A stretch of DNA of 63,767 bases, counting the filler, from Collodictyon triciliatum (Eukaryota): the NCBI GenBank assembly GCA_043381765.1. It is 5 parts of 5 records of this genome, joined end to end, with 100 filler letters (N's around TTAATTAATTAA, not from the genome) between each part and the next. Parts side by side here need not be neighbours in the genome. Positions count along the whole stretch, not along the records: positions 40,244 to 60,873 come from JBHJMP010001223.1; 4 more parts are not named here. One strand, written 5' to 3'. A model generated the notes under the pieces. The model was not told the origin of the DNA and made no database searches. It saw nothing but the letters and a program-made list of their open reading frames with translations. A program made the translations under genes and the position numbers. Shown here piece after piece: positions 13,163 to 63,767 of the stretch. The first letter of the stretch is position 1. Each line of letters begins with the position of its first letter.

Positions 13163-16100
13163 ATGCGCCCTTTGGTTTGGCTCCGCAACGATCTTCGTCT
13201 TCGAGATAACATTGCCGTTCACGCTGCTTCGAAGGTACAAAAGAAACGATGAAGTATTGACGACAACTCTAAATAACAGAGCCCTGCATAAAATAGACAG
13301 GTTCGCCAATACTGTTCTTCTGCTTTGACAAACGCCAGTTTGCCCAGCTGCGCTATGGGTTTCGAAAAACTGGTGTCTGGAGAGGCCGCTTTCTTCTTGA
13401 AAGTGTATCAGACCTGCGAAGGTACTGCTCGCCATGTGACCATGTCGACATTATTGTATTCACCAACGATATTGCATATTTATATTATCAGTTTGCACAA
13501 AAATGCCATTGTCTATCTTTCAGCTCAACAACATAGAAAAGTGCCTAAAAACAAAAGAATTCCTATCTCTGACTCACACCCCACCTAAATCTTTAATTGC
13601 ACATAATCACGAAAATAACAGACTTAAAAAACATACAGGTCGTGCCAACTACTAAACTCGGATGTTGTAATCCGCGTGGGCAAGCCGAGTACTCACATTG
13701 AAGACATTATTCGAAAGTACAAAATTACGCAGTTGTTCTTGCAAACAGAGACAACAAGCGAGGAGGTATGTATGTAGTAGCCCTGCTGTCTGCAAGTATG
13801 CCATAATTATTTAGTTTTTTGTGATGTTGTCTCCATACCTCCTGCAATTATTAATTCGATGCCAACCATATTAACATACTAGTTGGATGCCGAGGAAGAG
13901 GTTCGAAAAGTGTGCGCAGCGAACAAGACACCAATAAACTCGGTTTGGGGAAGTACAATGTTCCACTTGGATGACCTTCCATTTGATGCCAGAGACTTGC
14001 CAGACGTATTCACAGCCTTCAGAAAAAGAGTGGAGAATGAATCCCAGGTAAACTCTCATCTAGTCCACATGTGCGTTCAAGTTGACTCCTTCGCAAGACA
14101 TTCAACTGAAACTTTCTTGCAAGTACACTAATTCACACAATTATGCTGTATGTTTCCAAACTTGAAGATACGAAGATGTGTCCCCGCACCAACCTCTCTC
14201 GATCCACTTCCTGAATGTTGGTCGCTCTTTCTACCTCAAGCAACACAATTTCATACATTTGAAATGATTCATTTTGCGTTTAAAAACTCAATCTGCGCGA
14301 TAAACATATCGATTTCCCTCGTCGCATACAATTCAAACCATGATTGTATTAACATTTACAGCGATACCTCCTGGGAATATACCGTCTCTCATAGAACTGG
14401 GCTTTGACGAAAGAGAAGCACAAAAGGCCCAGAGAAGACCAGGGAGTCAAACAGGATTTTCTCTTAATGGTAAAGTATACGGCCCTGATATGGCATGACA
14501 GATTCATGACTTTCGAGACCTGATTCCGTTGTACCCTTCAAAAGAACATCTTTAGATGGCCACCCAATTAATTTATATATCTCTGCAGGAGGGGAAAGCC
14601 ATGCTCTCAACAGAATGAACGATTTCATATGGACAAAAAACCTCCTGCGAGAATACAAAGTATGGGCTTAGCATGTCTCAATCCCGCCGCATCTCATTCA
14701 AAACACATCACCAACCATTCTTTGGCTGAGGTGGTTGATAACTAGAGATTTCATAGGATATTAGAAATGGGATGCTCGGCATGGACTATTCCACCAAACT
14801 ATCGCCTTATTTGGCACTGGGTTGCATTAGCCCCCGACAGATATACGAAGAGGTGTGGACTTAGCATCCTCAATATTACGTGCACATACTACCAATCTTT
14901 TGAGCAGTTTTCAAAAACCTGAGAACTGAATGGCTTTTTCCGAACCTTACATCCATGATTTTTTTATAGGTCATTAGATACGAAGCAGAACGAGAAAAGA
15001 ATGACTCTACCTACTGGCTCTTATTTGAACTTGTATGGAGGGACTACTTTCGGTTCGTGTCAATGAAATATGGAAGTCGCTTATTCTTCAGAGACGGAAT
15101 GATTGGGGCCGGAAAGCGCAAGAAATGGCTGTCGAATCCTGTGCACCTCGAGGCTTGGAAGCACGGAAAGACCGGATTTCCTCTCGTAGACGCAAATATG
15201 CGTGAAATGATGCACACAGGGTGAGTAATCAGGGAGAAAGGTTTCTATGTGATGAAAGTAGCTCATATATCTGCTCCAGGCTTGAGCTTAGAGTTCAATT
15301 GACCGTATTGTTTTATTTTTATTGTTATTGTTGCTCCTGCTGTTCTAAAACAAGAAAAAATTAATGCTGCATGCCGCAAACCAGATTTATGTCGAACAGA
15401 GGGAGACAAAACGTAGCCAGCTTTTTTGCTAAAGACTTGCAGCTTGATTGGAGAATAGGTGCGGCATGGTTTGAAAACTGCTTGGTAGACTATGATGTGT
15501 GCTCGAACTGGGGCAACTGGCAATACGTCAGCGGGGTAAATACTTAATACTTTATGTCATACTCAACCTGCCAATCAAATCATTACTCAGTCGCACCTGT
15601 TGTACTGTTCTGAAAGTAACTCACTTAAAATTGCAAACCTCACAAAAACAAACAAAAAAATTATTCCTAATGTCACCTGCCATTTATTATCCCCAGGAAC
15701 CCCATCACATTCATTTCCTTGCCTTTCTCTGTTCTTTGTTTTTTGTTTTTTTCTTTTTGTGTGATTTTTCCATTTTCTGGTTTCCCATACTTCCGTTAAC
15801 GCCCTTGTTCATCTACCAGGTGGGTAATGACCCCCGAGAAGACCGCCACTTCAACGTCACCCGCCAAGCGATGATGTACGACTCGAAAGGGGATTACATT
15901 CGATACTGGATTCCAGAGCTTGCTCAAGTTCCAACGAGTCAAATATTCGAGCCATGGAAACTGTCTCTTTCCGAGCAGGTATGAATACATCTGTCATGCA
16001 AATACCTCTTCCTTTTTTTTTTTATCTTCCAAAAGTGTCTACCAAATAGAATATTAATCTGCGTCGCCTTTTCTTCTTCCTTCTTTTGCAAAATCTATCG

Positions 16101-22265: not shown

Positions 22266-33595
<11,330 letters not shown>

Positions 33596-34287
33596 ATTTC
33601 ATATGAAAAATAATTGGCATTCCAGATGCATAGAATTAATATAACTTGAGGGCAAATAATAGAGCAAACTNNNNNNNNNNNNNNNNNNNNNNNNNNNNNN
33701 NNNNNNNNNNNNNNNNNNNNNNNNNNNNNNNNNNNNNNNNNNNNNNNNNNNNNNNNNNNNNNNNNNNNNNNNNNNNNNNNNNNNNNNNNNNNNNNNNNNN
33801 NNNNNNNNNNNNNNNNNNNNNNNNNNNNNNNNNNNNNNNNNNNNNNNNNNNNNNNNNNNNNNNNNNNNNNNNNNNNNNNNNNNNNNNNNNNNNNNNNNNN
33901 NNNNNNNNNNNNNNNNNNNNNNNNNNNNNNNNNNNNNNNNNNNNNNNNNNNNNNNNNNNNNNNNNNNNNNNNNNNNNNNNNNNNNNNNNNNNNNNNNNNN
34001 NNNNNNNNNNNNNNNNNNNNNNNNNNNNNNNNNNNNNNNNNNNNNNNNNNNNNNNNNNNNNNNNNNNNNNNNNNNNNNNNNNNNNNNNNNNNNNNNNNNN
34101 NNNNNNNNNNNNNNNNNNNNNNNNNNNNNNNNNNNNNNNNNNNNNNNNNNNNNNNNNNNNNNNNNNNNNNNNNNNNNNNNNNNNNNNNNNNNNNNNNNNN
34201 NNNNNNNNNNNNNNNNNNNNNNNNNNNNNNNNNNNNNNNNNNNNNNNNNNNNNNNNNNNNNNNNNNNNNNNNNNNNNNNNNNNNNNN

Positions 34288-39908
<5,621 letters not shown>

Positions 39909-49404: not shown

Positions 49405-51087
49405 TCAATGCAAAGGGGGGAGAGAAGGGAGTGCAGGAACTTTTGTATCGGCGAATGCTGTCTGATTAACTTTGGTTTGACTATCCCTTGGGAGAGATTC
49501 CTTTGCATTTGGTGATTGTGTAAATGCTGCCTTCGACCGGCTCGGTGGTGTTCTTGGAGATGCTTTGGGGTATAGTCCTGTTTTCCTAGAGAAAGGTGTA
49601 GGTATGTTCAATTGGAACGGTGTTTTCTTGTGAGAGCTGCTGTTTGTGATTGGCTTATATCCATGCGGCGACTGATTAGGTTCTACGGCTTTTGTCTGCT
49701 GGCTTTGTGGATGCATCTGTATTTGCTTCACTGCAACTGAGTGCGTATGCGTCAAATCAGGTCTTGCTGAAAACACCGACGAGTCTCCTGTATCGTTCGA
49801 TTCTGATAAAAAAGGTGGCTCAGCAACGTCCTGTGTGAAATGAGTAGAAGAGACGTCAACCCTGCGAACAGACTTGGGTGCAGCATTATGGGAAGAGGGC
49901 TTCTCATCTGGTAACGTCGGGCGGTGGACGAGATCCGCAGCTCGGGTATGACCCAGCATGATGCTCAAAGCATCCCACAGATTACGAGCCAACCGAGCGC
50001 GGTATGATTCGGGCGATGTTTCATCCTGTTCTGTGTCCTTCAGCTTTTCCTCGTCGATGGGGATAACAGGCGCACATTGAATCACAACAGAGCCTGTTCG
50101 AGGGTACAGACAGTTCTTTGGGCACAAGCGAAAGGCCCCGTGTATTGCAACGGGGAGTATTGGAATGCGGGCATCACAGGCCAGATGAAAGGCGCCTTTC
50201 TTAAAGGTTGCAAGGCGGCCGTTTTTTGAGCGAGTACCTTCTGGGCTGATGGCTATGGACCGCTGGCTTTGCTTGATATCTGCGGCTGCCTTTTTCAAGG
50301 AGCGGATGGCAACGGCCCTCTTGGACCGATTCACAAAAACGACGCCGTAGACGAAAAACAAAGCGTTTACAAAGGGATAATACATGGTCTCGGCCTTTGC
50401 TACGAAAGAGACCGAGACTGGGCTATAGGCCGCAACAAAGACCCCGTCGAGTGCAGAGGTGTGGTTGAAGGCCACCAGGAAAGCACGGCGCGACTCTGCA
50501 TCTCTCGCAGGCTGAGGCCACTCGCCTTTCACATAGACGCGGATGCCAAGCGTGAATATCAGCCAGCGCAGGCAGGACCGATGGAAGTGATACAAGGGCA
50601 GCTTTTCCCAGCAACAGAGGCCCTTTCTGTGCACAAGGATCTCAAGAACACGAAGCGGGCACAGAAGGAGCGAGACAACAAAGTACACAGCAACAGACGG
50701 GGCAAAGACAAAGGCCCGCAATAGAAGATGCAGAAGGCTGCCGAGTGCAGAGGGCGAGTCCACCGCGGCATCGGGATCCTCGTCGGCCTCGTGGTCGGCC
50801 CACACATCCGCACTCAGTGGCTCGGGGGCAGCCTTCCCAGGTTGGTATGACTCGGCGGGCTGGGCTGCAGGCGGTCGAGTCCGCTGCTGGGCCGGGCTGG
50901 GTGGTGATCGATAGAGCGCCTGCTCTGTGGGTTGGCCCAGAAGAGACGCGCTTTGGAGGGGGCTTTGTGCTGGCGCTTTGCTGTCTCCGGCCTGCAGGTT
51001 TTGGTCTGCGCTCTGCGTCTCTGGTGTGACTTTCAAGCGGGGTGAAGGCGGACGTGGGAAGGACTTGCGGCTTGGCTCTGATGCCAT
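49405..51087 (-). CDS. 1-acyl-sn-glycerol-3-phosphate acyltransferase (PlsC/AGPAT/LPAAT family), single exon, 560 aa
   Basis: Motifs NHTSALD (HX4D), FVAKAE, VFVNR, ISPEGTRS, FKKGAFHLA, IPILPVAI. Hydrophobic segment N-terminal to the catalytic domain. P/S-rich N- and C-terminal extensions. Confidence 0.93.
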   Translation of the reverse strand: MASEPSRKSFPRPPSPRLKVTPETQSADQNLQAGDSKAPAQSPLQSASLLGQPTEQALYRSPPSPAQQRTRPPAAQPAESYQPGKAAPEPLSADVWADHEADEDPDAAVDSPSALGSLLHLLLRAFVFAPSVAVYFVVSLLLCPLRVLEILVHRKGLCCWEKLPLYHFHRSCLRWLIFTLGIRVYVKGEWPQPARDAESRRAFLVAFNHTSALDGVFVAAYSPVSVSFVAKAETMYYPFVNALFFVYGVVFVNRSKRAVAIRSLKKAAADIKQSQRSIAISPEGTRSKNGRLATFKKGAFHLACDARIPILPVAIHGAFRLCPKNCLYPRTGSVVIQCAPVIPIDEEKLKDTEQDETSPESYRARLARNLWDALSIMLGHTRAADLVHRPTLPDEKPSSHNAAPKSVRRVDVSSTHFTQDVAEPPFLSESNDTGDSSVFSARPDLTHTHSVAVKQIQMHPQSQQTKAVEPNQSPHGYKPITNSSSHKKTPFQLNIPTPFSRKTGLYPKASPRTPPSRSKAAFTQSPNAKESLPRDSQTKVNQTAFADTKVPALPSLPPLH

Positions 51088-52131: not shown

Positions 52132-55100
52132 ATGGAAGCGGAAAAGGACGTCGTAGTTCGCGAAGCACCGTCTCTCACAAACGAGACTCCGTCGGAAGGA
52201 GGGAGTCAACCCCGCTCGTTTGACCTGCGCGCCATTGCCGGGAAGGCAGGCAATCAAGCGAGCCTCAATGCAGATATCAACATGGCCTCGCAAAGCGTCT
52301 CGCGCACAATGGCGCCCGGCCAGCCCGATCAGAAGCGTCCTCACACGGCGAAGATGGCCGATGCTGTAGTTGCGATGATGAAGAAGCGCAAGAAGAAAAA
52401 GATGGTTGCGCGCTCGGGCATTGCGGCCTTCTTCAAAGGAGAAGGGAAGAAGGAAGGGGCAAATAATCAGAACCCCGAGCAGGAGGCGGTCAGCTTTGGT
52501 AAAAAGGTAGAAAAGTTCCTGGCTACTGCAAAGAAAAAGGTGAATGCGCTCCTGATCGAAGGAACAAGCGTACATATATTCTTTTTCTTTGCTGGGATAC
52601 TGATGACCTTCACCATGTTTTATATCATACAATACATTATCGTCCAAGCAATTGCGCAATACACAAACCCACCAGGGTAAGTAACCACTCATTACACTGA
52701 ATATTCTTAATCATTGATTTTTTTTTATATTGTCCAACATGACTGATGTATATATATGCATGTGAGTATATATATTTCCTCTTTATTCGATTCAAAGTGC
52801 AGCGAGGTTATGGGAATATCTCTGTTTAACAATTACATTGAATTATTTATGGTGAAGAGAAATCATGACCCTTTGCAAATAAAATCATACAATTTCGTAT
52901 TTTCTATCGTCCTCTGTATTATATATTGGGTTGCTCTCCTGTTCTCCCTTTCGTTGAATCTTTTTGGCTTTATATTCAGGGAAGTTTTTTTTTAAAAAGA
53001 AATCATTAATTTTGCCACAATAGTCAGTTTTCAATTGAATACGCATCATCTCTTGAGACACCTGCGGTTCGAATTTGTCCCGACCAGGTATCCTTCGTCT
53101 TCGTTACTTCTATCTGATACCATGACTTACGTTTAGCAGAATCATAATCAATATAAACTCAATTCCAAATATACCACTGCAGCTTAGGGGCTTTCTTTAA
53201 AAATTCACTCCTTATATTAAACTACGCAGAGAGGGATAGATATCATCTTTGCGGAGTCAAATGGTTTCGAACCAGTATGTCTCACTCTAAAAGATAATGA
53301 GATAGATGGGGATTGTGGTTACACCAAAACCCTGGACATATTTGGTGACGACACGACAAATACTTGTTACGTATTCAATACCCAGAAGGCTGTGCAGGAT
53401 AAAATACTCTTTACAGAGACCGGCCAGAGCATATTTATAGCTTTTTTTGCAAAAGGTGCTCACTAGTGGAGAGATAATCTCATTCAGCTTCCTTTTCTTC
53501 CTCTTTTCTTTCCTCTTTTCTTTCCTCTTTTCTTTCCTCTTTTCTTTCCTCTTTTCTTTCCTCTTTTCTTTCCTTTATATCTTGGATTACTGCCACTTGT
53601 GTTCCGACTTTTAATCGTTGTGCTAGCTATCCATACGCCATCATATATATTTTTTTACTGATAAGTGGAAAATTTGCTGATTTCACATTCATTTGATTAT
53701 ATATATAGCAAACACCTCGGACCCAGATTTAGCGTATCTTGGAGTCCCGTTCACTCTCTTTCACGACACTGAGTACGATCCAAGTGACGAGCTCCCAAGA
53801 ACAGGCTATATTCCTTTTGGATACTCGGCCATGGTACATGAAGTGCTTAAATGAAACGACCTCATCATAGCTATATTGGCACTTGGTTTTGAAGGGATTG
53901 TTTCAAAAAAAGTCAATTTACTCTATCAAAGCGTCCTTCTTGTACAAACCAAGATACCAGAATCTTATTTTTAATTTACTCTGTCTTATTCCGTGTATAC
54001 TTAACATATAAATCTCAGGCAACCGTCACTCTTGACAAGCATATTTCCTTATCAGGAGATCAAACATGGTATTTCACGACCCCTGGTCTAACAACCTTGG
54101 AAATGAGGTAGGGGATATTCTTCTTTTATCGAAGGAAGACTGATTTTCGATCATTTACACGAAAGAAGGGGATTCGAGGGTGATACTATTCGATTTGTCT
54201 CTACTATATTTATGTCAAAGTTCACTCATATATGAATGTACAGCGAAGAGTTAGTAGCCAGTGCAATGAGTAAACTAGTTATCGATGATGAGATCAAACC
54301 GCTTATGCATCTTCATGTTCTTAACATCAGGGTGAATACGCGTTATTAAGCATACATCATCACCGCATAAAAATTTATTTAACACACCAAAAAATTACCC
54401 ACATTGAATCGAGTCCCTCATATTCTAATCTAATCTATATGAGTTCAGTTTGCATCCCTGCAAGTCACCACAACCCAAGAATACATCCCGCTAGGACCTC
54501 TCGTAACCACTCTCTTGATTTTCATATGTATCTATTCTATATATTTTTCTTAAAAAAAAGGAAGTAGTCACTATCACCGAATTCTTTTCCTGACACATAT
54601 AAAAAAGGTGTCGTTTTTCATTAATCACTACTCTGTTAATTTGTTTGGTAATCATAGGAAATCATCGCAGCCTTGGGAGGTATCTTATCGCTTGCCTCGG
54701 GAATTTTGGTAGGGAGACCGTACTTTCACATTAGTGGTTGCATTCCGAACTATTATCTCCTTTTACAATTCAAGTATTAAAATTGAAGGCATGAATAGCC
54801 ACTGACCCGGAAAAAAAAAAGAAGTCGCTAACCACCAGAAATATTAGCAATCCCTTTATCCTCCCGCAGAACGCCTGAAGCGCCGCTTCATCTTTGATGT
54901 CGTTGAGGTATTACGTCTATTTCACTAGTCTCACCCTACAGAATATTTGAGCGTTCTGTGTTCATGCCACCCAACCACCCATTCTTTTTTCCCCATTCTC
55001 CAACTTTTCATTCCTAGCGTCACAACTCTTTTACCCATTTTATAATTTTATCTTACTGACAACATGCTATTATTTCTGCACAGGAGCAAGAGGTCGAAGA

Positions 55101-55140
55101 GGTGGAGAATCCAGCTAGCCCTAGGGCCAAACAATCATAG
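52132..55140 (+). CDS. Two-transmembrane DEG/ENaC-superfamily-like ion channel subunit with a compact ectodomain, about 10 exons
   Basis: TM1 IFFFFAGILMTFTMFYIIQYIIVQAIAQY, then TNPPGQFSIEYASSLETPAVRICP (cf. FPAVTxCN); TCYVFN (cf. GNCYTFN); GVPFTLFHD..GYIPFGY (cf. GxxVxIH..PG); LNIRFASLQVTTTQEY..EIIAALGGILSLASGIL (cf. F.sl.y..i.e..ll.diGG.lGL). The last two exon junctions are less certain. Stop TAG at 55138-55140. Confidence 0.72.
53491..53575. repeat. (TTTCCTCTTTTC)n 12-mer pyrimidine repeat, intronic
   Basis: Direct tandem repeat. Confidence 0.85.
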
Positions 55141-55203: not shown

Positions 55204-55489
55204 ATCACACATCACACATCACATATCGCACATCACACGTCACACATCACACATCACACATCACACATCACACATCACACATCACACATCACACATCACA
55301 CATCACACATCACACATCACACATCACACATCACACATCATACATCACACATCACACATCATACATCACACATCACACATCACACATCNACACATCACAC
55401 ATCACACATCACACCTCACACATCACACATCACACATCACACATCACACATCACACATCACACATCACACATCACACATCACACATCAC
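55204..55489. repeat. (ATCACAC)n heptamer tandem array, about 40 units
   Basis: Direct tandem repeat with occasional variants (ATCATAC, CTCACAC). Confidence 0.92.
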
Positions 55490-56069
55490 TCGTCACGTAT
55501 CATATCGCAAATGTGGTGCCGTTTCCTGTCGTTCGTTCGGATCACAAATTCCGTGGTGCCGCCCACTTTGTCTTTTCTGTTGTGATGTGAAGCCAGGTAC
55601 AGAAGAAAGTTGACAGGACGCTGAATCTGGGATACCTGTTGATCACAACCCACTAGAAGTTGGCCAACAGAGCCTTGGCGTTGAGAACTTTGATCACCCT
55701 CCCACCCGTTCTATTGGCTTTCTCTGACTCCCTATGTTTTCTTCTTTCTTCCTCTCTTTCCTCAGTCCTTCCAGCCTTGTGGGGAGATGACAAGGAGCAA
55801 ACACGCGCACCCTTTGCAGCGCATCTACTTTGGAATCCTCTTTGTTGTGGACGTTCTTGCAACACTCTTTTTGTACCTGTGTCTACATGCCACGGCAGAG
55901 AAGGGCTGGGCTCAATCGTGGGAGAGCCAAGTGTTGGAGTACGAGTTTGATTCCTCCTGCTTCGACTTAGTCGTGAGTCTTGCTTGCCCAACGCCATACT
56001 CGTCACGTCCTGCAAAAAGGGATGTTCCTTGATTTTTCTCATATACATATGGAACACCTAGCAGATATA

Positions 56070-56947
56070 TAAAATACAAGAAGATAAAACACAGGAAGAT
56101 AAAACACAGGAAGATAAAACACAGGAAGATAAAACACAGGAAGATAAAACACAGGAAGATAAAACACAGGAAGATAAAACACAGGAAGATAAAACACAGG
56201 AAGATAAAACACAGGAAGATAAAACACAGAAGATAAAAGATAAAACATAAAAGATAAAACATAAAANNNNNNNNNNNNNNNNNNNNNNNNNNNNNNNNNN
56301 NNNNNNNNNNNNNNNNNNNNNNNNNNNNNNNNNNNNNNNNNNNNNNNNNNNNNNNNNNNNNNNNNNNNNNNNNNNNNNNNNNNNNNNNNNNNNNNNNNNN
56401 NNNNNNNNNNNNNNNNNNNNNNNNNNNNNNNNNNNNNNNNNNNNNNNNNNNNNNNNNNNNNNNNNNNNNNNNNNNNNNNNNNNNNNNNNNNNNNNNNNNN
56501 NNNNNNNNNNNNNNNNNNNNNNNNNNNNNNNNNNNNNNNNNNNNNNNNNNNNNNNNNNNNNNNNNNNNNNNNNNNNNNNNNNNNNNNNNNNNNNNNNNNN
56601 NNNNNNNNNNNNNNNNNNNNNNNNNNNNNNNNNNNNNNNNNNNNNNNNNNNNNNNNNNNNNNNNNNNNNNNNNNNNNNNNNNNNNNNNNNNNNNNNNNNN
56701 NNNNNNNNNNNNNNNNNNNNNNNNNNNNNNNNNNNNNNNNNNNNNNNNNNNNNNNNNNNNNNNNNNNNNNNNNNNNNNNNNNNNNNNNNNNNNNNNNNNN
56801 NNNNNNNNNNNNNNNTAAACATAAAACATANNNNNNNNNNNNNNNNNNNNNNNNNNNNNNNNNNNNNNNATAAAACATAAAACATAAAACATAAAACATA
56901 AAACATAAAACATAAAACATAAAACATAAAAACATAAAACAAAAACA
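56070..56947. repeat. (AAGATAAAACACAGG)n 15-mer array grading into (TAAAACA)n, interrupted by N gaps
   Basis: Direct tandem repeats flank the gap at 56267-56815. Confidence 0.88.
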
Positions 56948-58196
56948 NNNNNNNNNNNNNNNNNNNNNNNNNNNNNNNNNNNNNNNNNNNNNNNNNNNNN
57001 NNNNNNNNNNNNNNNNNNNNNNNNNNNNNNNNNNNNNNNNNNNNNNNNNNNNNNNNNNNNNNNNNNNAAAATATAAAATAAAGTAATGAGTAGGTCTAAA
57101 GTTACATTATGACTGTGCACAAGACATCGAATAAAGGAAAAAAATGATTGGACACAAGACTATCATAATGCATTTATTGTACGATACTATTTCTATTGAA
57201 TATATTTCTCTCAGCCCAACAAAAACTTAACAATTATGTAAAAACGCCTCCACCACAGACAAACTGAAAGAAATAATTAAAACAATACAACATTTACTTT
57301 TGCATATTATTATGCAAAATTTCATTTAATGGTCTGAAATATCATCTTATTTTGGTAAAGCTAATCTATCGGTTTCTTACATCAAATTAACAATCCAATA
57401 GATCATGGCTATACTGCGCTGTGGAATTCTCTTGTATTTTTATTCATACAAAGGGGACAGATCCTTGTTAGTTATTATTGTAAGACCTTCCACAGATTAA
57501 TTGACTATAACACTGCCATTATTTCACCTGATGTGTGAATGAAGCCAACTTTGAGTTTTAACATTTTGTTTCGAATCAAGGAAGAAAATTTTGATCCTTA
57601 ACATGCAATCATTCGGTTCAAATACTTTTATCTCAAAGCAAACGCAATATTATCGTTACGTAGGGAGTTTTCTTTTTCTCGGTGACCTTATCATCTGTCA
57701 AGATTTCGAGCTTCCAATCGACCGACTTGCTTCCTACTATAATTATAGGAATTTCTTATGTATCGGTCATCATGGAACTCTATGTTATTTATCGGAGACT
57801 TAAACAGCATACTGTAATTTACACATTCAAACAATTCTCTAAAAATGAATTCAAAGGCCACACTTTACTTCCGAATAGTCTGTCTCTAAACCAACGGCAT
57901 ATAATCCTTAATTTCGGGGGTAATTTTTTCCCTAAAAAATAGGTTCGGCATCGAAACCCTTTTTTATCTGGAAACGACTCCCTCATCTCAACAAACCATC
58001 CTGGAAACACGGTCGATTCTCAAATAGTTCTGCTTTCCTTTCAAATCATGCTATTTATATTGGGGAAACATAACACATGGTGTGTCTATTATTCTAGATA
58101 TATTTATACATGCGCGCGACTCACAAAGACCATATCCCAGTTGTCGCACTTGACACCGAGCTACCTAAGCATACAGAAAAATGCAACTGATTCAAG

Positions 58197-62687: not shown

Positions 62688-63767
62688 CATGAAGGGCTCT
62701 CACCTACCACAAAAGCATCTCGACACACTGGAGAGCATATGCGTGCACCTTCATCACAACAAAGAGACAGCAATACAAATTCAAAACACTGAATAGCTCC
62801 CACAGAAGGAGGCGTTGACTCATCACACCCAAAACCGCATGGATATCACTGACCATGAGTGGTGGGCAGACATGTTCATGCAGCCGAATGGTTTGGCAAT
62901 TGGGATGTGGAAACTCATCACCAAACATGTTCAGACTTAAAACACAGTTGCAACAAAGGACAATCCCACGACCACCTCCAAACACACCCGAGCCTTTGCT
63001 CTCGCGTTGGCAGATTCTGTATACTCACTGCGAAATGACAATACCCCTGAACGAGCCATTGGCAGCAGAAAAAATGCTGGGACAACAGAAAGGCTTCTGC
63101 ATCATCAACAGGTTCACGAAGGCAACGCGGCCACCTCAAGAAACTCATTCAAGAAGACGGCTGACATCACAAGCCAGCTCCACGGCATTCCGCACACAAG
63201 ATGCCAGCCAACCACAGCCGTCCTGAAATAACAAAGGGGAAGTGGCGCTCATGTGAGACCATCCATACTGCATCCCGTCGCCATCTTTTTCCGCCCCAAG
63301 AATGAACGCTTTGTCTAACGGTGCGCAGTCTTTACAGTTCTCGATGGCTTTGTCTTACTCCAAATTCTTTCGATACAAAATATCGCCGCCGACACCCTAC
63401 AAAAAGTCAAAACATCAACGGTGGGGAGAAACACTGGGCATCACCCACACCCCGCTCACCGCGAGCTGGAGACAAGCACGAATCCCGTAAGTCCTTCCAA
63501 ACCACCGCTCTCTAATCTTAATATCACAATAGGAGCTATGGATAGGCACACGCGCGGCAAAGCTACAAAGTCTCCCAACAATGCACACTTTGCAGCAACG
63601 GTGATGAATCCATTGAGCACACATTTGTGCAATGTCCCTTCGCTCAAAACCTGCGCGAAACAGCCGGTGAGATTCTTCGACTGACACTCAAGACGGCTGC
63701 GGCTGTTGGCCCAATCCAGGCGATATTTTTGCCTCTGCAACAGCTGCGTCCAGATGCAAAAACATTC
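62688..63767 (+). mobile_element. Decayed non-LTR retrotransposon (L1/Tx1-type) ORF2 3' region
   Basis: Intron-free, GC-richer segment. Frame at 63564-63767 reads YKVSQQCTLCSNGDESIEHTFVQCPFAQ, the CxxC..ESxxHxFxxC zf-RVT motif. An upstream PTEGG remnant (about 62800) resembles the post-RT EGGLG motif. In-frame stops and frameshifts lie between. Confidence 0.75.

Follow-up and report, generated by a model that had tools for sequence, protein, structure and literature searches.

A spliced gene of Collodictyon triciliatum that probably encodes a remote, strongly reduced relative of the DEG/ENaC channels

Can a protein that carries several short motifs of the DEG/ENaC channels, but not their Cys-rich thumb, be counted as a member of that superfamily when it comes from a non-animal eukaryote? 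The question is raised by a gene of Collodictyon triciliatum at 52132-55140 on the + strand of the window (the whole stretch of 63,767 nucleotides, filler included, that was analysed). DEG/ENaC channels are treated, in the sections available of two published accounts, as an essentially animal family with a few protist outliers that resemble animal forms (PMC10507113, PMC9822975). It is argued here that the locus is probably an intact eukaryotic gene, rich in introns, whose 452-aa membrane product is a remote and strongly reduced member of the superfamily.

Joining ten exons gives a single frame of 452 aa (1359 nt including the stop), and the predicted gene runs from an ATG at 52132 to a TAG at 55138-55140. 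All nine introns have GT..AG borders, and in each of the nine the upstream frame meets a stop 1-23 codons inside the intron. The GC content is 48.0% for exons and 33.1% for introns, with each exon GC-richer than the introns adjoining it. In the stop-to-stop ORF list only exon 1 (a 183-aa ORF) and exon 3 (an 81-aa ORF) reach the usual ORF-track length, the other exons encoding 17-42 aa each. The statement in the initial annotation that the ORF track misses most of this gene is thus borne out, and its splicing of the exons into one two-TM protein was reproduced in silico with exactly the same coordinates.

Exon 1 (52132-52676, aa 1-181 plus 2 nt; all exons are on the + strand) supplies the start codon, a Lys-rich N-terminus of ~142 aa that is predicted to be cytosolic, TM1 and the first residues after it. 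Exon 2 (53024-53087, aa 182-203) carries P-A-V-R-I-C at 53061-53078, aligned to the family F-P-A-V-T-i-C columns, and exon 3 (53230-53455, aa 204-278) carries Cys220 and Cys232 as well as T-C-Y-V-F-N at 53362-53379, aligned to the family n-C-Y-t-F-N columns. The segment G-V-x-x-x-L-F-H...P...G-Y-I-P-F-G, at 53741-53821 in exon 4 (53709-53833, aa 279-320), is aligned by both hhalign and the core HMM described below to the family a-G-v-k-v-v-i-H...P...G-i-s-v-p-p-G. Exon 5 (54019-54107, aa 321-349 plus 2 nt) encodes the strand after this PFG segment and is the site where the Cys-rich thumb block of the family would be, but is absent. Exon 6 (54244-54331, aa 350-379) contains a helix-like segment that aligns to the knuckle columns, and in it the pre-TM2 strand begins (L-N-I-R), which exon 7 (54449-54502, aa 380-397) carries on as F-A-S-L-Q-V...Q-E-Y. 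The core of TM2, L-G-G-I-L-S-L-A-S-G-I-L, is encoded by exon 8 (54658-54708, aa 398-414), its end and a following basic stretch, predicted to be cytosolic, by exon 9 (54848-54907, aa 415-434), and an acidic C-terminus with the TAG stop by exon 10 (55084-55140, aa 435-452).

The gene model is at its least certain in the 3' exons 8-10. The exon 9 acceptor was placed at 54848 because the alternative acceptor at 54870 yields an in-frame stop. Exons 7-10 are just 51-60 nt each, and exon 7, if read into intron 7, acquires a hydrophobic tail and meets a stop after 16 codons; nor was any annotated protein with exon 3 present in the protein databases searched. These observations would suit a locus for which the model is wrong, one that is unexpressed or makes a shorter product, or a decaying pseudogene. 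Such an outcome is improbable, however, given that all ten exons join without a break in the frame, with canonical borders and a GC content above that of the flanking introns. The splicing model is also supported by the family alignment, which spans the exon joins 1/2, 6/7 and 7/8, passing through the last two into a TM2 that has the family L-G-G pattern.

Hydropathy (windows above 1.5) identifies two membrane segments in the spliced protein: TM1 at aa ~143-172 (52558-52647, + strand) and TM2 at aa ~397-418 (54500-54859, + strand, running from the end of exon 7 through exon 8 into the first four codons of exon 9, with two introns excluded). Each aligns to the corresponding TM columns of the family, and the basic residues following TM2 suggest that both termini are inside. 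The ectodomain between the helices measures ~224 aa and holds all four Cys of the protein (200, 220, 232 and 249), in agreement with the ~220-250 aa and four Cys that the initial annotation had given. The four DEG/ENaC hallmarks that it had listed could all be located, in the order claimed: P-A-V-R-I-C (195-200), T-C-Y-V-F-N (248-253), G-V-P-F-T-L-F-H...P-F-G (290-316) and F-A-S-L-Q-V...E...L-G-G (380-405). The post-TM1 family motif F-P-A-V-T-[IV]-C has its counterpart in T-P-A-V-R-I-C (aa 194-200), and the beta-ball motif C-Y-T-F-N in C-Y-V-F-N (aa 249-253), both in family columns.

In an alignment of 80 family sequences, exactly four columns outside the thumb (97, 166, 173 and 188) are conserved as Cys at a level of at least 97%, and Cys200, 220, 232 and 249 are their counterparts, the match being exact at columns 97 and 188 and at or near the column for the other two (one on 166, one 2-3 residues off 173). 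Ten more Cys columns (at least 85%) all lie within the thumb block, and these have no counterpart in the spliced protein, from which the thumb itself is missing. The four non-thumb Cys presumably pair as two disulfides. For ASIC1, the portion of the literature available describes a disulfide C291-C366.

The likeness to the family was quantified with profiles built locally from 220 PF00858 proteins, a set seeded by sequences fished with the motif F-P-A-V-T-[IV]-C-N-x-N, which we take to be a DEG/ENaC signature. Profile A1, made from four fished full-length ORFs and used as the seed of the first family search, matches ASIC1 in the PDB at 5.8e-71, and also ENaC, FaNaC and pickpocket chains. Against the spliced protein, a sponge-type profile scores 7.4 bits (P 6.7e-5) and a non-redundant profile of 80 sequences from several animal phyla scores 14.8 bits (P 3.9e-7, corresponding to an E-value of ~0.01 in a Pfam-sized library search). 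A score of 11.0 bits, from a profile that included the motif-fished ORFs, was set aside because the fishing motif is over-weighted in it. The 14.8-bit match consists of three colinear pieces, namely TM1 with P-A-V-R-I-C, C-Y-V-F-N, and the pre-TM2 strand with L-G-G. Full shuffles (2000) peak at 5.6 bits and block-preserving ones (20,000) at 10.0 bits, none of them reaching this score. The window's own ORFs reach at most 3.7 bits against the family profile; they are the only usable ORF control, since the fished loci are contaminated by true family exons. The same colinear layout, with the exon-4 segment included, was returned by hhalign (query 104-440 against template 8-484, P 0.0022). Pairwise phmmer gives scores above 0 bits with 47 of 164 real family proteins, whereas 2 reversed and 1 shuffled decoy (164 of each kind) do so; raising the cut to 3 bits leaves 19 real proteins and no decoy of either kind.

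The alignment requires deletion of the thumb columns 278-358, whose limits are set by the Cys block of the family itself, and of ~49 finger columns. Removing the thumb columns from the profile raises the score to 17.6 bits (P 5.6e-8), and removing the finger columns 104-152 as well, with boundaries that were picked after the alignment had been seen, raises it to 21.1 bits (P 4.9e-9), a score that again none of 20,000 block-preserving shuffles reaches. The match to this core profile is a single 18.0-bit alignment from TM1 to TM2 (aa 117-410 against core positions 14-303). The score thus climbs both with a more diverse profile and with deletion of the thumb and finger columns. The description 'thumb-less' in the initial annotation is therefore apt, the thumb columns and their ten Cys being missing, but does not cover all that is absent, which includes the finger helices and two motifs, HG and GxS, considered below.

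How much of this similarity lies beyond the named motifs is a separate matter. Masking the four motifs lowers the score to 0.9 bits (P 0.007), and the ectodomain taken alone, once its two short motifs are masked, scores -3.9 bits (P 0.2); P-A-V-R-I-C is worth ~9 bits and the exon-4 segment ~4 bits. Since the signal resides almost wholly in the named motifs and the helices, the profile test quantifies the motif observation and is not an independent proof of it. The protein might then be a lineage-specific two-TM protein unrelated to DEG/ENaC, in which four or five short motifs have been matched by chance or convergence. The lack of detectable similarity in the ectodomain outside the motifs and TM helices fits such an origin, as does the lack of a family match from library and database tools queried with pieces of the protein, and an Atlas feature search with exon 3 leads to CUB-like clusters at 0.88, a lead only. 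Moreover, a per-protein P of 4e-7 overstates the significance, because the gene was chosen by a motif-seeking reader over very many windows. Chance, however, would have to place the motifs in family order and at the positions that they hold in the family with respect to both TM helices, to bring all four Cys to or near the four non-thumb family columns, and to produce a score that 20,000 block-preserving shuffles fail to reach and that grows with profile diversity and with thumb and finger removal. An unrelated protein is thus unlikely, though it is the likeliest of the competing explanations for the locus.

The searches with pieces of the gene have their own limits. PF00858 was not matched in Pfam at E up to 10 by nine exon pieces or by two single-frame, stop-masked translations that read through the introns, and no ASIC, ENaC or PAC chain was found by phmmer in the PDB with two stop-masked translations, exon 3 and exon 4 as queries. 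The sole outcome of those four queries was SEC39 (E 0.12), which is unrelated. From the tool's stated filter limit it is estimated, rather than measured, that such Pfam and PDB piece searches are blind below ~18 bits per piece. The idea in the initial annotation of a reduced superfamily member thus stands as regards colinear similarity to the local profiles and the absent thumb, whereas the PF00858 match was not obtained with single exons or stop-masked translations. In a search of 1.84 billion representatives, no relative of exon 3 came to light among the matches inspected: three of the four at E<=1e-3 proved to be unrelated repeat proteins, the fourth having a length of 5670 aa. A word-indexed homologue search with exon 3, aimed at longer proteins, gave 20 candidates, none at E<=0.01. 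With exon 3 lacking relatives in these searches, no orthologues are visible from which a profile could be built. Within the window, tblastn of the spliced protein found no paralogue, and Rfam and tRNA scans gave no match. A neighbouring gene encodes an acyltransferase, for which an Atlas search gives bacterial-type acyltransferase clusters only.

The protein could also belong, or lie nearer, to a different family of trimeric two-TM channels, PAC/TMEM206-like or P2X-like. In ectodomain size (~224 aa) and in having no peripheral domains it resembles PAC. P2X receptors have ten conserved ectodomain Cys, compared with the four Cys of the whole protein here. With pieces as queries, phmmer against the PDB at E up to 10 turned up neither a PAC nor a P2X chain, a weak test, and no PAC or P2X family of Pfam was matched by the exon pieces or the stop-masked translations. 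The motifs that do match, moreover, are those of the DEG/ENaC family. A place in or nearer to either of these families is accordingly very improbable. PAC has the ASIC/ENaC core fold in common with that family and has no discernible sequence similarity to it (PMC7904269), whereas the Collodictyon protein, similar to PAC in ectodomain size, has the DEG/ENaC sequence motifs.

As a reduced DEG/ENaC member, the protein would retain TM1, a beta-strand ectodomain core (palm and beta-ball, with two non-thumb Cys pairs), the pre-TM2 strand and TM2, and in addition the short segment that falls on the knuckle columns. It lacks both the finger helices and the Cys-rich thumb. By analogy with the structures of ASIC, ENaC and PAC, it may assemble as a trimer with the TM2 helices lining a central pore, and movements of the lower beta-domain may gate it. 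Candidate stimuli would be protons and mechanical or osmotic force. The pore motifs differ from those of the family. The pre-TM1 His-Gly motif is absent, the family t-a-H-G columns falling on a Lys-rich stretch, and the only His nearby is residue 148 at the start of TM1, which is followed by Ile. The G-x-S (GAS) filter is also absent from TM2, where positions +7 to +9 from the conserved G-G read G-V-S in the family and G412-I-L in the protein. Since neither HG nor GxS is conserved, a channel formed by this protein would be expected not to be Na+-selective in the manner of ENaC.

In common with metazoan DEG/ENaC proteins (ASIC1-5, ENaC subunits, FaNaC, degenerins and pickpocket; PF00858), the Collodictyon protein has two TM helices around one ectodomain and, in the same order, P-A-V-x-I-C, C-Y-x-F-N, the strand pair G-v-x-v-x-i-H...P...G...P-G, the pre-TM2 strand and a TM2 that begins with L-G-G, and it has counterparts at or near the four non-thumb Cys columns. 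In contrast to them it has no Cys-rich thumb, finger helices or HG, G-I-L replaces G-x-S, and TM2 is short. The lack of finger helices contributes to an ectodomain of ~224 aa, compared with roughly 345 positions in the family profile. Two compact arthropod DEG/ENaCs with solved structures, the centipede PDPNaC1 (421 aa) and BRTNaC1 (431 aa), both among the PDB chains that the family profile matches, are similarly short. PDPNaC1 also has no canonical HG motif, and its authors, in the part of their paper available, tie this to broader cation selectivity (PMC12714832). Compared with these two, the Collodictyon protein is without thumb and finger and keeps the segment aligned to the knuckle columns.

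Homologues outside the Metazoa have been described in Cafeteria roenbergensis and Tunicaraptor unikontum, with candidates in Symbiodinium, and in the sections available of those accounts the sequences from protists group with ordinary sub-clusters of animal ASIC/ENaC (PMC10507113, PMC9822975). Judged by these published descriptions, so far as they go, the Collodictyon protein is far more divergent. No reduced or thumb-less protist DEG/ENaC form was found among the papers listed by literature searches, which does not prove absence.

It is possible, though doubtful, that the gene represents an ancient, pre-animal and minimal DEG/ENaC lineage in a non-animal eukaryote, a core-only channel of two helices and a 12-strand beta-domain that has kept the ASIC/ENaC motifs. 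If so, it would provide a sequence-level bridge from ASIC/ENaC to the PAC-type architecture, and the thumb, finger, HG and GAS would be later animal additions. The value of the locus is tempered by a homology drawn from few motifs and by the lack of orthologues in the searches. Nevertheless, a natural core-only protein with DEG/ENaC motifs would be a minimal scaffold that may show on which parts of the ectodomain gating depends and what form the ancestral channel took, and its altered pore motifs would make ion selectivity a directly testable question.

By its sequence, the stretch at 52132-55140 (+) is a eukaryotic split gene. The initial annotation had described a spliced gene here, mostly missed by the ORF track, and both points hold. 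In a stop-to-stop list only exon 1 (a 183-aa ORF) and exon 3 (an 81-aa ORF) are long enough to stand out, and joining ten exons gives a single open frame that starts with the ATG at 52132, stops with the TAG whose last base is 55140, and runs for 1359 nt, encoding 452 aa. The splice borders were picked by eye and then checked by script. Exon 1 (52132-52676), which begins at the ATG, and exon 2 (53024-53087) are followed by exon 3 (53230-53455), the largest ectodomain exon, then by exons 4 (53709-53833), 5 (54019-54107), 6 (54244-54331), 7 (54449-54502), 8 (54658-54708), 9 (54848-54907) and 10 (55084-55140), the last closing with the TAG. All nine introns have GT..AG borders, and in each the upstream frame meets a stop 1-23 codons in. 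GC content is 48.0% in exons versus 33.1% in introns overall, and each exon is GC-richer than its adjoining introns. As far as sequence can show, the ten-exon gene is real, the small 3' exons being the least certain portion of the model. Intron 3 carries a tandem pyrimidine-rich repeat of ~12 nt (CTTTTCTTTCCT-like) within 53480-53580.

Upstream, a 560-aa ORF with an acyltransferase domain (49408-51087, -; PF01553, E 7e-26) is read divergently, its start codon ~1 kb from that of the channel-like gene. It is GC-rich (54.8%) and has no introns, in contrast to its AT-rich, intron-dense neighbour, and its matches in an Atlas search were acyltransferase clusters of bacterial type only. About 70 nt past the stop of the channel-like gene, a long microsatellite with a CACACAT-like 7-nt unit (55205-55490, including one N) translates into extended ORFs of His/Thr/Ser repeats, which do not represent genes. 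Runs of N at 33650-34290 and 56100-57000, the latter flanked by another microsatellite, are assembly gaps; the window holds 1678 N overall. Elsewhere are a cryptochrome/photolyase-type gene of several exons (13880-15990, +; FAD_binding_7, E 5.6e-12 on 15700-15984), protein kinase exons from one or two genes (22269-25685, -; Pkinase and PK_Tyr_Ser-Thr matches on 22769-23233) with the catalytic loop H-R-D-L-K-S-A-N-I, and a kelch-like exon (30201-30392, -). At 63546-63767 (+), where the window ends, a partial ORF has a C-x2-C...H...C pattern typical of the zinc-binding tail of retrotransposon reverse transcriptases. Rfam and tRNA scans of the window gave no matches.

The topology of the spliced protein is also as first described, with two membrane segments by hydropathy (aa about 143-172 and 397-418), a stretch of ~224 aa between them (220-250 had been estimated) and only four cysteines (200, 220, 232 and 249), every one in the ectodomain. 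The four motifs on which the DEG/ENaC assignment was based occur in the order claimed.

Seeds of a family set for profile comparison were fished from metagenome contigs with the back-translated short DEG/ENaC family motif F-P-A-V-T-[IV]-C-N-x-N. Of the 120 loci returned, four contain intronless full-length ORFs of 491-611 aa. These DEG/ENaC genes of the animal ASC type (L011:2143-3975 (-), L073, L006 and L084) include three close kin that match sponge-annotated database proteins. A profile of the four retrieved at least 120 proteins, all of those listed having PF00858, and its PDB matches include ASIC1 (5.8e-71), ENaC subunits, FaNaC and pickpocket chains. A second profile, from eight diverse fished ORFs, added 101 further PF00858 proteins from cnidarians, molluscs, echinoderms, hemichordates, a fish and a nematode. 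The main family profile comprises 80 non-redundant full-length proteins drawn from both searches.

The spliced protein scores 7.4 bits (P 6.7e-5) against the sponge-type profile of 120 sequences and 14.8 bits (P 3.9e-7) against the 80-protein profile. The latter match consists of three colinear pieces, aa 117-200, 248-269 and 375-409, containing TM1 with P-A-V-R-I-C, C-Y-V-F-N, and the pre-TM2 strand with L-G-G. Full shuffling (2000 replicates) never gave more than 5.6 bits, and 20,000 shuffles in which the N-terminus, TM1, ectodomain, TM2 and C-terminus blocks stay in place never gave more than 10.0 bits; neither set reached this score. hhalign gives the same colinear layout (query 104-440 versus template 8-484, P 0.0022) and adds the exon-4 segment. 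Compared pair by pair with phmmer, 47 of the 164 family proteins give a score above 0 bits, as do 2 reversed decoys and 1 shuffled decoy from sets of 164 each; 19 family proteins but no decoy of either kind exceed 3 bits.

The missing thumb claimed for this protein can be placed on the family alignment, where the non-thumb part has exactly four cysteine columns with a conservation of at least 97% (97, 166, 173 and 188) and ten more, at 85% or more, all fall within positions 278-358. In ASIC1, the C291-C366 bond bounds the thumb block. A paper on this channel describes the bond as linking the beta-turn with strand beta10 (PMC2701601). Removal of thumb columns 278-358 raises the score to 17.6 bits (P 5.6e-8), and further removal of finger columns 104-152 raises it to 21.1 bits (P 4.9e-9), the latter gain being partly post hoc since the finger boundaries were set after the alignment had been viewed. 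Against this core profile, aa 117-410 align without a break to core positions 14-303 (18.0 bits; null maximum 10.5 bits over 20,000 shuffles). The only four cysteines of the protein lie at or near the four non-thumb columns, with Cys200 aligned to column 97, Cys220 to 166 and Cys249 to 188, while Cys232 sits 2-3 residues off column 173 because its loop is longer. Given these gains and this arrangement, the protein resembles the core of the family minus the thumb and finger helices.

Masking attributes ~9 bits of the score to P-A-V-R-I-C, ~8 to the pre-TM2/TM2 segment, ~5 to C-Y-V-F-N and ~4 to the exon-4 segment. With all four masked, 0.9 bits are left (P 0.007), and the ectodomain alone with its two short motifs masked has no signal left (P 0.2). 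Thus, the profile test quantifies the motifs already observed and is not independent evidence. The gene was chosen for these very motifs out of a very large scan, the motif used to fish the family seeds is one it partly shares, and P 3.9e-7 equals an E-value near 0.01 in a Pfam-sized search.

Similarity to the ASC family was seen with local profiles of PF00858 proteins but not with Pfam, which was run on pieces. Nine exon pieces gave no ASC (PF00858) or other credible Pfam match; nor did two single-frame translations across introns, with stops as X (exons 1, 3, 5, 8 and 10; exons 4, 6, 7 and 9), give any. Among all PDB chains, none from ASIC, ENaC or PAC was matched by any of four phmmer queries. 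For exon 3, no relative was found in a word-indexed protein database or among 1.84 billion representatives, where three of four matches at E<=1e-3 were inspected and are unrelated repeat proteins. The one lead from an Atlas feature search, CUB-like, is weak. These negatives show that the protein is without close database relatives and that no single exon has a strong family signal; being blind below ~18 bits per piece (estimated from the tool's stated filter limit), they say little on the whole protein.

The protein departs from the family at two pore motifs. Where the family has H-G, ahead of TM1, the alignment puts a Lys-rich stretch, and G-V-S of the G-x-S (GAS) belt, counted from the conserved TM2 G-G, is replaced by G412-I-L, shortly after which the helix ends in P-P and basic residues. 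In a centipede family member without HG, cation selectivity is broader, and the authors tie the two (PMC12714832). With neither motif conserved, and given this precedent, we would not expect ENaC-like Na+ selectivity.

The non-animal DEG/ENaCs of Cafeteria and Tunicaraptor group with ordinary animal sub-clusters (PMC10507113, PMC9822975), and compact solved members of the PDPNaC1 type retain the thumb and finger (PMC12714832), whereas the Collodictyon protein appears to have neither. PAC overlaps with ASIC/ENaC only in a 12-strand core and two helices, without discernible sequence similarity (PMC7904269); the protein described here is PAC-like in extent but has DEG/ENaC motifs. Among the papers listed by our literature searches, none deals with reduced protist forms of this kind, which is not proof of absence. 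True homology to DEG/ENaC is, in our judgement, quite probable, and the protein is most likely a strongly reduced member of the superfamily, without thumb and finger and with a rewired pore.
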